This document shows, piece after piece, positions 7,937-10,800 of a stretch of DNA of 12,890 nucleotides. The notes beneath the pieces were generated by a model that had not been told where the DNA came from, made no database searches, and saw only the letters and a program-made list of their open reading frames with translations. A program made the position numbers and the translations under genes. Every line of letters starts with the position of its first letter. Within the stretch, counting starts at the first letter, position 1. The stretch spans positions 1 through 12,890 of IMG/VR virus record IMGVR_UViG_2703718777_000025; one strand, given 5' to 3'. The stretch is from a virus. Lineage: Duplodnaviria; Heunggongvirae; Uroviricota; Caudoviricetes.

Positions 7937-8398
7937 CTACTGGTTACGTTTCTTTAGTGCCAGCATGTTCTCGAAGGCTTCCTCGTAGAGCTTGTTTAGT
8001 CCACGTAGCTGGTTAAGGAGTTTGGCTTTTTCTGACGCAGGTAGAATCTCGAAGAGGTTAAGTAACTCTGCCTGTTCTTCATTGACCAGCCTCCATCCTT
8101 TGCCTGAAAAGCTATCATCATAAGTATCTGATGATCTTACATAATTCATTAAGTCTTTAAGGTCTTCTCGAATGTCCTCTGGTTTTACCTTTAACAGAGC
8201 CGCAAATTTTAGCGCAGCGTCGGTATTTACCGGTATCTTGCCGTTCAGATACTGGCTAACGGTGCCTTGAGATTCGAATCCCAACAACTCAGCCGCCAAC
8301 TCTTGAGTCAGCTTCAGCTCTTTTTTTCTTGCATTCCATGCGGCTTTTAAATTCTTGCTCGCTTCTGGAGTTGCAATCACTTCGCGTGTTTTTTTCAT
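7937..8398 (-). CDS. racR: Prophage repressor, XRE/CI-type helix-turn-helix, RacR-like
   Basis: 153 aa with helix-turn-helix LTQELAAELLGFESQGTVSQYLNG. Divergent from the cro-like gene. No S24 peptidase-like C-terminal domain. ATG 8396-8398 has no Shine-Dalgarno and a -10-like TAAACT 6 nt upstream, suggesting a leaderless mRNA. Confidence 0.8.
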   Translation of the reverse strand: MKKTREVIATPEASKNLKAAWNARKKELKLTQELAAELLGFESQGTVSQYLNGKIPVNTDAALKFAALLKVKPEDIREDLKDLMNYVRSSDTYDDSFSGKGWRLVNEEQAELLNLFEILPASEKAKLLNQLRGLNKLYEEAFENMLALKKRNQ

Positions 8399-8475: not shown

Positions 8476-8505
8476 TTGCTCGAGGCATAACGTAGAAGGT
8501 TGGCT

Positions 8506-8781
8506 ATGAACTTAAGAGACTATTTAAAAGAGAAACATATCACCCAGCTACAGTTTGGGAAGCTAACGGGTTTATCTCAGGTGCATGTAAGTCGAGTGCT
8601 GGGGGGCTATGAAAGATTCAGCCCTGAAAAAGCATTACGTGTTGCTGAAGTAACGAATTTCGAGGTTACACCTCATGAACTCCGGCCTGATATCTACCCG
8701 AATCCAACCGACGGTTTACCTGTTGGATGTAAGGCTAACACACAAAATACACAGGAGTTGATTCATGAAAATCAGGCATGA
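8506..8781 (+). CDS. ydaS: Cro-like helix-turn-helix protein, YdaS family
   Basis: Helix-turn-helix LTGLSQVHVSRVLGG. In the cro position and overlapping the start of ydaT. The track ORF begins at a TTG (8500); the first ATG is 8506 with GAAGG 6 nt upstream. Confidence 0.8.
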   Translation: MNLRDYLKEKHITQLQFGKLTGLSQVHVSRVLGGYERFSPEKALRVAEVTNFEVTPHELRPDIYPNPTDGLPVGCKANTQNTQELIHENQA

Positions 8782-9187
8782 GCACATCGAATCAGTGCTG
8801 TTAGCCCTGGCAGCTGAAAAAGGGCAGGCATGGGTAGCCAGTGCAATTACTGAAGAATATCTGCGCCAGGGAGGCGGCGAATTGCCCCTGGTACCAGGCA
8901 AGGACTGGAATAATCAGCAGAACATCTATCACCGTTGGTTAAAAGGTGAAACGAAAGCGCAAAGGGAAAAAATTCAGAAACTGATCCCTGCGGTTCTGGC
9001 AATTCTTCCGCGCGAGCTGCGTCACCGACTCTGCATCTTCGATACCCTGGAACGCCGTGCATTACTGGCGGCGCAGGAAGCGTTGAGTACGGCAATTGAT
9101 GCGCATGATGATGCAGTCCAGGCCGTTTACCGGAAAGCACATTTCAGCGGTGGTGGGTCGCCCGGCGATTCTGTCGTAGTGCATTGA
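8765..9187 (+). CDS. ydaT: YdaT (CII-like regulator of Rac-type prophages)
   Basis: 140 aa from MKIRHEHIESVLLALAAEKGQAWVASAITEEYLRQGGGELPLVPGKDWNNQQNIYHRWLKGE, near-identical to my recollection of Rac YdaT. AGGAG ribosome binding site upstream. Confidence 0.9.
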   Translation: MKIRHEHIESVLLALAAEKGQAWVASAITEEYLRQGGGELPLVPGKDWNNQQNIYHRWLKGETKAQREKIQKLIPAVLAILPRELRHRLCIFDTLERRALLAAQEALSTAIDAHDDAVQAVYRKAHFSGGGSPGDSVVVH

Positions 9188-9232
9188 TTGAAATTAATCG
9201 TGCCGGATTGTTTTGTTCGGTATCAGTTAAAT

Positions 9233-9251
9233 GTAACGCTGCGAGCGTTAC
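9233..9251. repeat. Palindrome GTAACGC-N5-GCGTTAC, copy 1, overlapping the ydaU ribosome binding site region
   Basis: GTAACGCTGCGAGCGTTAC, perfect 7-bp arms, 14 nt upstream of the ydaU ATG. Confidence 0.6.
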
Positions 9252-9264
9252 AAGGTGAAAACAA

Positions 9265-10053
9265 ATGGCTTCAAACTGGATAAAGCTCGAGGTTATTACG
9301 CCGGATAAGCCGGAAATATTCAGGCTTGCTGAGATTCTGAATATTGATCCAGATGCCGCATTAGGGAAGGTTATTCGCTTCTGGGCATGGGCGGATCAAC
9401 AAATGATAGACGGTAATGCAGATTGTAACGCTCGCGGCGTTACAAAAAGTGCAATAGATCGCATCACTTTTATGGCTGGTTTTGCTGATGCGTTAATTCA
9501 GGTTGGATGGCTGGTCGAAAATGACGGTGGGCTTTCTCTACCTAACTTTGAACGTCATAACGGGAAAAGCTCTAAAAAACGGGCGGTTACAAACGAGCGA
9601 GTTACAAAAATACGCGAACTGAAACGAAAAGGTAACGCTGGCAGCGTTACACAAACGGATCAAAAAGCGTTACCAGAGGAAGAGGAAGAGGAAGATATAA
9701 ATACTGATCTCCCCCTAAATCCCCCTCGCCAAAAACGAGCGTCTAAAAAATTCGAGCCGGAGGCTATCGAGCTGCCTGACTGGTTGCCGGAAACACTCTG
9801 GCATGAGTGGGTTCAGTTCAGGCAGGCATTGCGAAAACCGATTCGAACGGAGCAGGGCGCTAACGGGGCGATACGGGAACTGGAAAAATTCCGTCAGCAG
9901 GGTTTTACACCTGAGCAGGTGATTCGACACAGCATCGCCAATGAATACCAGGGCTTGTTCGTACCGAAAGGTGTTCGGCCTGAGACGTTGCTCCGACAGG
10001 TTAACACCGTCTCGTTGCCGGACAGTGCGATCCCGCCAGGCTTCAGGGGGTAA
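9265..10053 (+). CDS. ydaU: YdaU-like replication protein (O-like; DUF1376-type N-terminus recalled)
   Basis: 262 aa in the position of lambda O, directly upstream of a DnaC-like gene. Has an acidic linker PEEEEEEDIN. AAGGTGA ribosome binding site upstream. Confidence 0.8.
   Translation: MASNWIKLEVITPDKPEIFRLAEILNIDPDAALGKVIRFWAWADQQMIDGNADCNARGVTKSAIDRITFMAGFADALIQVGWLVENDGGLSLPNFERHNGKSSKKRAVTNERVTKIRELKRKGNAGSVTQTDQKALPEEEEEEDINTDLPLNPPRQKRASKKFEPEAIELPDWLPETLWHEWVQFRQALRKPIRTEQGANGAIRELEKFRQQGFTPEQVIRHSIANEYQGLFVPKGVRPETLLRQVNTVSLPDSAIPPGFRG
9425..9443. repeat. Palindrome GTAACGC-N5-GCGTTAC, copy 2, inside ydaU
   Basis: GTAACGCTCGCGGCGTTAC, perfect 7-bp arms; encodes CNARGVT. Confidence 0.6.
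9632..9650. repeat. Palindrome GTAACGC-N5-GCGTTAC, copy 3, inside ydaU
   Basis: GTAACGCTGGCAGCGTTAC, perfect 7-bp arms; encodes GNAGSVT. Related half-sites: GTTACAAA x2 at 9586-9608 and GCGTTAC at 9666-9672. Confidence 0.6.
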
Positions 10054-10059
10054 CAGACC

Positions 10060-10800
10060 ATGAAAAATATTGCGACAGGCGGCGTTCTGGAGCGTATCCG
10101 CAGACTGACCCCACCACATGTAACCGCCCCATTCAGAACGGTTGCGGAGTGGCGTGAGTGGCAACTTACTGAAGGCCAGAAACGTTGCGAGGAGATCAAC
10201 CGTCTGAATCGTCAGTTGCGGGTGGAAAAAATTCTGAATCGCTCTGGCATCCAGCCGTTGCACCGTAAATGCTCGTTTGCGAATTACCAGGTGCAGAACG
10301 ACGGCCAGCGATACGCGTTAAGCCAGGCGAAATCCATCGCTGATGAACTGATGACCGGGTATACAAATTTTGCGTTCAGCGGAAAACCTGGTACCGGGAA
10401 GAATCACTTAGCGGCAGCTATCGGGAATCGCCTGCTGAAAGACGGTCAGACAGTGATTGTGGTTACCGTGGCTGATGTTATGAGCGCCCTGCACGCCAGC
10501 TATGACGACGGGCAGTCAGGCGAAAAATTTTTGCGTGAACTGTGCGAAGTGGACCTCCTGGTTCTTGACGAAATTGGCATCCAGCGTGAGACGAAAAACG
10601 AGCAGGTGGTACTGCACCAGATTGTTGACCGCCGGACGGCATCACTGCGCAGTGTCGGGATGCTGACAAACCTGAATCATGCCGCAATGAGCACGCTTCT
10701 TGGTGAGAGGATTATGGACCGGATGACCATGAACGGTGGTCGTTGGGTGAATTTTAACTGGGAGAGCTGGCGGTCAAACGTTGGACGTCAGGGTATGTGA
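10060..10800 (+). CDS. ydaV: DnaC/IstB-like AAA+ helicase loader
   Basis: 246 aa with Walker A FSGKPGTGKNHLAAAIG and Walker B DLLVLDEIG. Confidence 0.9.
   Translation: MKNIATGGVLERIRRLTPPHVTAPFRTVAEWREWQLTEGQKRCEEINRLNRQLRVEKILNRSGIQPLHRKCSFANYQVQNDGQRYALSQAKSIADELMTGYTNFAFSGKPGTGKNHLAAAIGNRLLKDGQTVIVVTVADVMSALHASYDDGQSGEKFLRELCEVDLLVLDEIGIQRETKNEQVVLHQIVDRRTASLRSVGMLTNLNHAAMSTLLGERIMDRMTMNGGRWVNFNWESWRSNVGRQGM

Follow-up and report, generated by a model that had tools for sequence, protein, structure and literature searches.

Palindromic sites at the initiator gene of a Rac-like prophage

The window analyzed here, which is the whole 12,890-nucleotide (12.9-kb) stretch of IMG/VR record IMGVR_UViG_2703718777_000025, is a Rac-like lambdoid prophage of Escherichia coli, and a query comprising positions 9100-10100 was 100% identical to O157:H7 and O111:H8 chromosomes. 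The integrase, recT, and recE genes lie on the minus strand, followed by a gene for a CI/RacR-like repressor (7937-8398, minus strand). The next genes are, in order, a Cro/YdaS-like gene (8500-8781), the CII-like gene ydaT (8765-9187), a replication initiator gene (9265-10053), ydaV (10060-10800), and a DUF1627 gene. The element under study is a perfect 19-bp palindrome, GTAACGC-N5-GCGTTAC, which occurs in and just upstream of the initiator gene.

Three copies of this palindrome had been reported by a first-pass annotation, and all three were confirmed at 9233-9251 (GTAACGCTGCGAGCGTTAC), 9425-9443 (GTAACGCTCGCGGCGTTAC), and 9632-9650 (GTAACGCTGGCAGCGTTAC); we refer to the copies as sites 0, I, and II, respectively. 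Only 0.04 copies were expected in the window, and none of 200 shuffled sequences reached three. No additional copy was found in the 12.9 kb even when up to two mismatches were allowed. The half-site GCGTTAC was present nine times in the window, with seven of these inside 9233-9673 (1.36 expected), and a degenerate half-site, GTAATGC (9413-9419), lies exactly 12 bp before the left arm of site I. Site II is at position +367 of the gene; site I precedes it by 207 bp and site 0 by 399 bp. Some of the details initially reported had to be adjusted. The additional half-sites do exist, although the isolated perfect one is at 9667-9673 rather than 9666-9672, and the region given as 9586-9608 consists of two imperfect half-sites (9583-9590 and 9597-9605). 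The upstream copy adjoins the ribosome-binding site but does not cover it, since it ends at 9251, directly 5' of the Shine-Dalgarno sequence (9252-9258). The genes and sites that the analysis draws on are as follows.

9233-9251, no strand: site 0, GTAACGC-TGCGA-GCGTTAC, between ydaT and ydaU; putative lineage-specific accessory initiator box and candidate autoregulatory site
9252-9267, plus strand: Shine-Dalgarno sequence AAGGTGA (9252-9258) and ATG start codon (9265), recognized from the sequence; 2 of 13 positions are polymorphic in the E. coli clade
9265-10053, plus strand: replication initiator gene, 262 amino acids; the N-terminal domain (residues ~10-95) leads into a basic arm with a disordered linker (~100-159), and three helices make up the C-terminal domain
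9413-9443, no strand: site I, a degenerate half-site plus the palindrome GTAACGC-TCGCG-GCGTTAC (9425-9443); read as an accessory initiator box
9583-9590 and 9597-9605, plus strand: imperfect half-sites GCGGTTAC and GCGAGTTAC, in the same orientation upstream of site II; candidates only
9632-9650, no strand: site II, the core palindrome GTAACGC-TGGCA-GCGTTAC, within DNA encoding the disordered linker
10060-10800, plus strand: ydaV, DnaC-like helicase loader (NCBIfam PRK12377, 2.3e-151; DnaC, 5.9e-91; PHROG 50)

The initiator protein matched the PHROG 2509 family, "replication initiation protein" (1.9e-89), and its "O-like" PHROG match was confined to residues 77-236. No Pfam match was obtained for the protein, and its N-terminal 125 residues had none even at an E value of ≤10. 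In the AlphaFold2 model, a confidently predicted N-terminal domain (residues ~10-95) consisting of four helices and a β-hairpin is joined to a three-helix C-terminal domain by a segment that is predicted to be disordered (residues 100-159, pLDDT of <50); the loop encoded by site I (residues 50-60) has a pLDDT of ~58. The model of the N-terminal domain is similar to winged-helix DNA-binding domains, some of which come from replication proteins, and we regard it as a putative winged-helix-like DNA-binding domain. (The structure alignment was built from a full-length protein search, and a search with the N-terminal domain alone returned mostly fragments.) The site II cluster (9583-9674) encodes residues ~107-137 and thus falls inside the predicted disordered linker. 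With respect to the DnaT-like C-terminal domain (PF17948), the window protein gave no Pfam match and only a subthreshold NCBIfam DnaT match over its last 19 residues (E = 0.0038, far below the cutoff). The presumed partner recruited by the C-terminal domain is YdaV.

The gene had been named ydaU. This name fits the C-terminal domain, which is shared with K-12 YdaU, but not the N-terminal domain or the linker, which are unrelated to those of the K-12 protein. Similarity to K-12 ydaU begins at window position 9796, covers only the C-terminal third, and runs at 93% DNA identity to the end of the query. Many E. coli genomes also encode a 376- to 380-amino-acid variant (P0067 to P0113) that is 93 to 100% identical to the window initiator over its first 57% only, such that the same N-terminal domain and linker are carried on a different, longer C-terminal part. 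This variant provides further evidence for modular exchange at the linker.

Conservation of the palindromes with the initiator N-terminal domain

The distribution of the palindromes was assessed in individual phages and in a sample of 80 viral contigs and 80 genomes. Perfect palindromes were found at +148 and +357 in Klebsiella phage ST11-OXA245phi3.2, Enterobacter phage BUCT554, and E. coli phage TL-2011b, whose N-terminal domains are 51 to 67% identical to that of the window initiator. These three have unrelated upstream regulators, no YdaT, and helicase loaders that are either P-like or absent. Xanthomonas and Ralstonia phages (42 to 46% identity) likewise carry the palindrome at equivalent gene positions, next to regulators and helicase loaders that again differ, and ~90 nonredundant homologues, down to 27 to 45% identity, share this 19-bp palindrome at ~+150 and ~+350 to +420. 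Site II was present at +328 to +424 in 82 of 91 nonredundant relatives, and a counterpart of site I was located at +136 to +160 in most of them. Nearly all members of the sample had the palindrome at both positions, and the genomes in it included Enterobacterales, Pseudomonas, Burkholderiales, Planctomycetes, Verrucomicrobia, and others; in Pseudomonas, the palindromes are changed at the outermost base only. In contrast, K-12 ydaU contains no GTAACGC palindromes, despite having the same neighborhood and C-terminal domain.

The association also held in the reciprocal direction. When viral contigs were scanned for the motif and the hits were subjected to a homology test, 165 of 187 exact motifs (from 120 viral-contig stretches) were in or beside a homologue of the N-terminal domain, and at least four further occurrences were in family members cut off by the end of the locus. 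The initiator family comprises 6,798 clusters at 50% identity (E ≤ 1e-3), and the window shows all of the features that define it: homology in the N-terminal domain, boxes at ~+150 and ~+350 to +420, a terminal half-site, a polypurine tract, and A+T-rich DNA. These comparisons indicate that the palindromes are tied to the N-terminal domain of the initiator and not to the neighboring genes.

A few exact motifs lie outside detectable homologues of the N-terminal domain, namely, at 528-546 of a Xanthomonas CP2-like contig (L177), at 7603 in L194, at 1377 in L223, and in L191, L195, L212, and L234. Some have extra GTTAC half-sites nearby, an example being GTAACGCGCGGTGCGTTACcgaatGCGTTACtggtttcGTTAC just upstream of the start of an opposite-strand gene. 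These outlying motifs may be extra initiator sites in the phages concerned or sites of undetected relatives.

Both the reading frame and the codons at the sites show that selection acts on the DNA. Among 82 nonredundant genes, site II is read in all three frames (59, 17, and 6 genes), and the surrounding linker is poorly conserved in amino acid sequence. The peptide specified by site I is G-N-A-x-x-V-T, with fixed synonymous positions: GGT is the Gly codon in 64 of 65 genes (21% in the remainder of these genes; P = 3e-39), AAC is the Asn codon in 65 of 65 (71% in the remainder; P = 6e-10), and GTT is the Val codon in 63 of 65 (31% in the remainder; P = 7e-28). Across 35 distinct sequences of the E. 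coli clade, the mean minor-allele frequency was 0.007 for the arms; the spacers had a value of 0.084 and third codon positions one of 0.054. The arms are therefore ~12-fold less polymorphic than the spacers, and at site II the arms are invariant while the spacer varies. Arm changes in this clade were restricted to decayed copies, comprising one deletion through site II and one point mutation. In L044, the deletion (+370 onward) starts within site II, and the polypurine tract is lost with it, leaving a truncated gene; in L018, a G-to-A change affects the left arm of site II (+367; GATAACGC). The decay of these two copies is consistent with origin inactivation in cryptic prophages.

The palindromes had also been proposed to force recurring peptides on the protein, and the sequences agree: the window copies encode CNARGVT (residues 54-60) and GNAGSVT (residues 123-129), and the Asn/His at site I varies with the DNA motif and is dispensable where site I is missing. 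The converse explanation, that a repeated NAxxVT peptide is constrained at the protein level and that the DNA has no function, would account for the two window copies that encode (C/G)NAxxVT in the same frame. We rejected it on the basis of the frame and codon tests and consider its chances negligible: one copy is noncoding, relatives read site II in three frames, synonymous positions are fixed, the two coding copies correspond to a loop modeled with low confidence and to the disordered linker, and relatives without site I lack the Asn.

In some lineages, the half-site sequence has changed in a concerted manner. The form GTCACG/CGTGAC was found in eight representatives and GTTGCG/CGCAAC in one, and in the epsilon15 group (27 to 34% identity) both clusters have the form GTCCGC-N7-GCGGAC. 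Essentially all half-sites have switched in the GTCACG and GTTGCG genes, the terminal one included; most GTCACG genes contain seven to nine new half-sites and retain zero or one of the old sequence. The GTCACG genes fall into at least four to five groups, each of which is closer to GTAACG-type genes than to the other GTCACG groups, and this scatter suggests that the specificity has switched repeatedly.

Two alignment columns follow the half-site type. Thr109, with which the basic arm begins after the winged helix, is retained by 94% of GTAAC-type genes, and 11 of the 12 representatives assigned to non-GTAAC types have another residue at this position, making it a candidate specificity residue. 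The second column, Asn55 (replaced by His), was considered as a required base-reading residue and rejected, as GTAAC-type genes without site I have Asp, Glu, or other residues at this position and one GTCAC-type gene has Ser. Because its codon lies in site I and Asn is not found where site I is missing, Asn55 is a passenger of the overlapping DNA site.

The region around site II and its likeness to known origins

When the genes are anchored on site II, a module common to the family emerges. A half-site of like orientation is found ~12 bp upstream of the palindrome, which is followed by a terminal half-site, then by a polypurine tract, and last by A+T-rich DNA. The downstream part of this module in the window, and the element that adjoins it, are as follows.

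9667-9674, plus strand: terminal half-site GCGTTACC, abutting the polypurine tract; universal in the family
9675-9695, plus strand: uninterrupted 21-nt polypurine tract, (AGAGGA)n, encoding EEEEEE; proposed part of an unwinding/loading region
9696-9709, no strand: A+T-rich stretch TATAAATACTGATC, including a GATC; candidate DNA-unwinding element
9711-9725, no strand: CCCCCTAAATCCCCC element, which codes for PLNPP and which many relatives have within an inverted repeat, CCCCCT...AGGGGG

On either side of site II, relatives have additional perfect half-sites spaced in steps of 11 to 12 bp. The terminal half-site is 12 bp downstream of the right arm in the family and 23 bp downstream in the window, i.e., one helical turn more, and it switches according to specificity type to GCGTGACC, GCGCAACC, or GCGGACC. 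The median length of the longest purine run in relatives is 21 nt, compared with 7 nt in a control region, the opening 300 nt of the genes. Of 91 genes, 60 have a run of 15 nt or more, directly after the last half-site in 54 of these 60, and the 14 nt beyond it average 71% A+T across the family, high-GC hosts included. The tract is of the (GAGAA)n type or, in enterics, the (GAGGAA)n type, and it is read in two frames, as REEKRRED or PEEEEEED. In the window, positions 9675-9709 are 80% purine and 63% A+T.

The tract varies in detail but stays purine- and A-rich. Some Pseudomonas members have GAAGATGTAGAGAAGAATAAAGA rather than a pure purine run, and the GTCAC-type Vibrio phage 1.211.A (L007) has two tandem copies of GATAAGAGTAGAGTA at +377 to +440 in place of the GA repeat. 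GATC (Dam) sites at 9658-9661 and 9706-9709 bracket the terminal half-site and the polypurine tract; there are only two, and their placement may be due to chance. The PLNPP element follows the A+T-rich stretch at ~+424 to +455 in loci L001, L008, L075, L078, L083, L085, L100, and L142. Many relatives, and K-12 ydaU as well, have it extended to CCCCCT-N-AGGGGG (encoding PPxNPPxG), and it is kept across N-terminal domain types. In the lambda ori, an inverted repeat likewise lies past the A+T-rich region.

The arrangement resembles the lambda ori in several respects. In both, the origin or proposed origin is inside the initiator gene, between a DNA-binding N-terminal domain and a loader-binding C-terminal domain; the four annotated iterons of lambda are at +348 to +432 of O, and site II is at +367. 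The sites are dyad symmetric in each case (19 bp here, with the iterons annotated as 18 bp in the lambda GenBank record), a purine-rich A+T tract follows the lambda iterons (ACAAAAGAAAAAAGAAAAGATTATT), the helicase-loader gene is immediately downstream, and the N- and C-terminal domains are exchanged as modules between phages. There are also differences. Lambda has four adjacent iterons, whereas here there is one full palindrome with satellite half-sites and one to two copies 200 to 400 bp upstream; the tract here is (GAGAA)n or (GAGGAA)n, and the loader is DnaC-like rather than P. Across phyla, the site described here stays almost unchanged, in contrast to lambdoid iterons, which vary between closely related phages. 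The wide spacing of the copies had been noted as a departure from the lambdoid pattern. This spacing is accounted for if the site II cluster with its flanking half-sites is the core and the copies 207 and 399 bp away are accessory. At the protein level, homology of the N-terminal domain to lambda O or to DUF1376 was looked for and not found: a BLASTP comparison of the window initiator with lambda O gave an E value of >1, there was no Phage_rep_O Pfam match, and hhalign gave a probability of 0.9%.

The latter value is that for the N-terminal domain of K-12 YdaU, a DUF1376 domain (PF07120; E = 2.7e-26), which together with the missing GTAACGC palindromes distinguishes the K-12 gene from that in the window. 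The two genes are alike in their racR-ydaS-ydaT-ydaU-ydaV context and in the C-terminal domain, which is 93% identical in DNA sequence from window position 9796. K-12 ydaU has linker repeats of its own (L004, ~2292-2359): TGTTCAAACA is present at +391 and +425 and the inverted TGTTTGAACA at +448, for a span of +391 to +458, followed by purine/A-rich DNA and the C-tract element. These repeats are candidate iterons of a DUF1376-type initiator and a candidate position for oriJ, the genetically defined origin that Rac has been reported to carry (PMC3945230). Our literature search found no nucleotide-level mapping of oriJ.

Epsilon15-like phages (Uetakevirus) have a homologous N-terminal domain (27 to 34% identity) in a protein annotated as "replication initiation protein" or "primosomal protein I." Their gene likewise contains two inverted half-site clusters, the second of which is followed by AGAGAAGAGAAGAGAAGA and A+T-rich DNA. 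Their half-site differs (GTCCGC, with 6-bp arms and a 7-bp spacer), as do the position of the first cluster (+65 rather than ~+150) and the C-terminal part, which is a Pfam DnaT domain (1.4e-12). The epsilon15 GenBank record annotates repressor and IHF sites and no origin. Iteron plasmids with a winged-helix Rep (the N-terminal domain of pSK41 RepA, PDB 4pta and 5kbj) resemble the window in having repeated sites next to an A+T-rich unwinding region, and their Rep domains gave weak structural matches. Inverted repeats are used in autoregulation in iteron-type plasmid systems.

Candidate roles of the sites in replication and regulation

Site 0 had been suggested to mediate autoregulation or control by YdaT. 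At -32 to -44, it is limited to a subgroup from E. coli, Yersinia, Serratia, Erwinia, and Pantoea, which also has a 12-bp insertion at site I, and an upstream copy is missing in 100 of 169 loci. Most family members lack this insertion (9413-9424; GGTAATGCAGAT), which places a second copy of site I's left half-site one step of 12 bp farther upstream and lengthens a surface loop by four residues (NADC); the subgroup that bears it also has site 0. The footprinted box of the Rac and CP-933P YdaT proteins is (A/T)TGATT-N6-AATCAA (PMC9986795, PMC11879457), the arms of which are unrelated to the palindrome arms. A sequence with one mismatch to this box, TTGATTCATGAAAATCAG, is present at 8758-8775, where it overlaps the ydaT start codon (ATG at 8765), as described for Rac, and it is nearly identical to the footprinted Rac box ATGATTCATGAAAATCAA (PMC11879457). 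The window prophage probably autoregulates ydaT through this sequence. A YdaT-box-like sequence with two mismatches (TTGATTGAAATTAATCGT, 9184-9201) is located 32 bp upstream of site 0, where it overlaps the stop codon of ydaT; such sequences are not above chance (four found, 1.4 expected). Site 0 and an upstream YdaT homologue were found together in 49 loci, site 0 without YdaT in 14, and YdaT without site 0 in 6.

Control by YdaT was therefore rejected: its published box differs from the palindromes and sits elsewhere in the window, the palindromes are found in phages without YdaT, and site 0 and YdaT dissociate in both directions. The broader idea that the palindromes are operators of YdaT (CII-like), YdaS (Cro-like), a RacR-like repressor, or a host transcription factor draws on the position of site 0 between ydaT and ydaU and on the weak YdaT-box-like sequence nearby. 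It is very improbable in our estimation, as palindrome-bearing phages have unrelated regulators and a host factor could not explain conservation from enterobacteria to Planctomycetes together with lineage-specific switches. Site 0 is better read as a third initiator box, whose position by the ribosome-binding site could give autoregulation. No sigma-70-like promoter was found between ydaT and ydaU.

Taken together, these observations make it probable that the palindromes are the initiator boxes of a replication origin inside the initiator gene, with the site II cluster and the polypurine/A+T tract as its core and sites I and 0 as accessories. That the initiator binds the palindromes as such is a claim that we hold with more confidence than the assignment of an origin, and the boxes are most likely recognition sites for dimers of its N-terminal winged-helix-like domain. 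The comparisons show that the sites are selected as DNA, belong with this N-terminal domain, and change as a set; our inference of binding, unwinding, and origin activity draws on the analogy with lambda O and ori. The central idea of the first-pass annotation, that these are initiator-binding origin palindromes in an O-like gene, is strongly supported by the cooccurrence with the N-terminal domain across phyla, the use of three reading frames, and the fixed codons. The concerted changes at all sites and the polypurine/A+T tract at the place equivalent to the lambda ori lend it further support.

Under this proposal, initiator dimers would bind site II and its satellite half-sites (core, 9583-9674), and the accessory sites I (9413-9443) and 0 (9233-9251), ~200 and ~400 bp upstream, would add cooperative binding or looping. 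The adjoining polypurine (9675-9695) and A+T (9696-9709) tract would be destabilized, and the C-terminal domain of the initiator would bring in the DnaC-like loader YdaV with host DnaB. Since site 0 abuts the Shine-Dalgarno sequence, initiator bound there could also damp expression of its own gene.

Several points weigh against an origin at this position. In the searchable literature, we found no binding, unwinding, or origin assay for this initiator family. Rac-type prophages are often replication defective (PMC11014345), and the element in the window may be inactive. The sequences compared are phylogenetically related, so that the codon and frame statistics and their P values overstate independence; even allowing for this kinship, the effects are large and recur in different phyla. 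The core holds one full palindrome plus half-sites at 11- to 12-bp steps or multiples thereof, compared with the four adjacent iterons of lambda, and the spacing between sites I and II (189 to 288 bp) shows no consistent helical phase across the family. Finally, the polypurine tract also encodes a charged linker and may be under some selection at the protein level.

The most serious alternative, which we nonetheless consider unlikely, is that the sites are solely initiator-bound operators or roadblocks that control the initiator and the downstream replication genes and that the origin lies elsewhere. Site 0 does abut the Shine-Dalgarno sequence, sites I and II are inside a transcribed gene, and, with no separate promoter between ydaT and ydaU, a bound initiator could affect how far transcription from the early promoter reads through; among plasmid initiators, autoregulation via inverted repeats is common. 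Yet an upstream copy is lacking in the 100 of 169 loci mentioned above, and the universal parts are site II, the satellite half-sites, and the polypurine/A+T tract, an arrangement that is typical of origins rather than operators. The position also matches that of the lambda ori in O, and the operator and origin roles are not exclusive. Much less probable, and on a par with control by another regulator, is that the palindromes are mRNA hairpins that steer the translation, stability, or processing of the ydaU transcript. Each folds into 8 to 10 bp (-10 to -12.6 kcal/mol), that of site 0 stops 1 nt short of the Shine-Dalgarno sequence, and site II has a terminator-like score on the minus strand. 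For a hairpin, however, complementary arms would suffice. Instead, the sites of a gene all have the same arm sequence, which is also shared across phyla, directly oriented satellite half-sites that have no pairing partner are conserved too, and all half-sites switch together, features that RNA stems would not be expected to show.

A bolder form of the origin proposal, to which we give a distinctly lower probability, is that the boxes and the (GAGAA)n/(GAGGAA)n tract form one conserved origin machine across bacterial phyla, in which the tract would be more than DNA that melts easily and would serve as a sequence-specific single-strand landing strip similar to the DnaA-trio element of bacterial oriC. 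The single-stranded DNA binder would then be, at the same doubtful level, the basic arm of the initiator or its C-terminal DnaT-like domain. Because the boxes overlap the initiator's own codons, a change in specificity must, on this account, rewrite the protein and all seven to nine sites together, and it appears to have done so at least four to five times (GTAAC to GTCAC).

An origin inside the initiator gene is the lambda paradigm, and the proposal made here is an extension of it rather than a new principle. What would be new is a different and very large initiator family, the dispersed boxes and half-sites, the conserved GA-repeat tract, and a site that is nearly invariant across phyla. In the literature that could be searched, which leaves out much of the older phage work, neither these sites nor an origin for this initiator family turned up; the searches covered oriJ, ydaU, ydaV, the motif, and DnaT-like phage initiators.

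If the proposal is correct, it would provide both a function and a precise origin sequence for a phage and prophage initiator family of ~6,800 clusters, whose DNA-binding domain has no Pfam model and whose members are mostly annotated as "hypothetical protein" or "primosomal protein I." The combination of box, half-site, GA repeat, and A+T-rich DNA would serve as an origin signature for thousands of temperate phages of Proteobacteria, Planctomycetes, and Verrucomicrobia, and the series GTAACG, GTCACG, GTTGCG, and GTCCGC would allow the coevolution of an initiator with the sites within its own gene to be studied. It would also identify the likely replication origin of the Rac-like prophages in O157:H7 and O111 E. 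coli pathogens.

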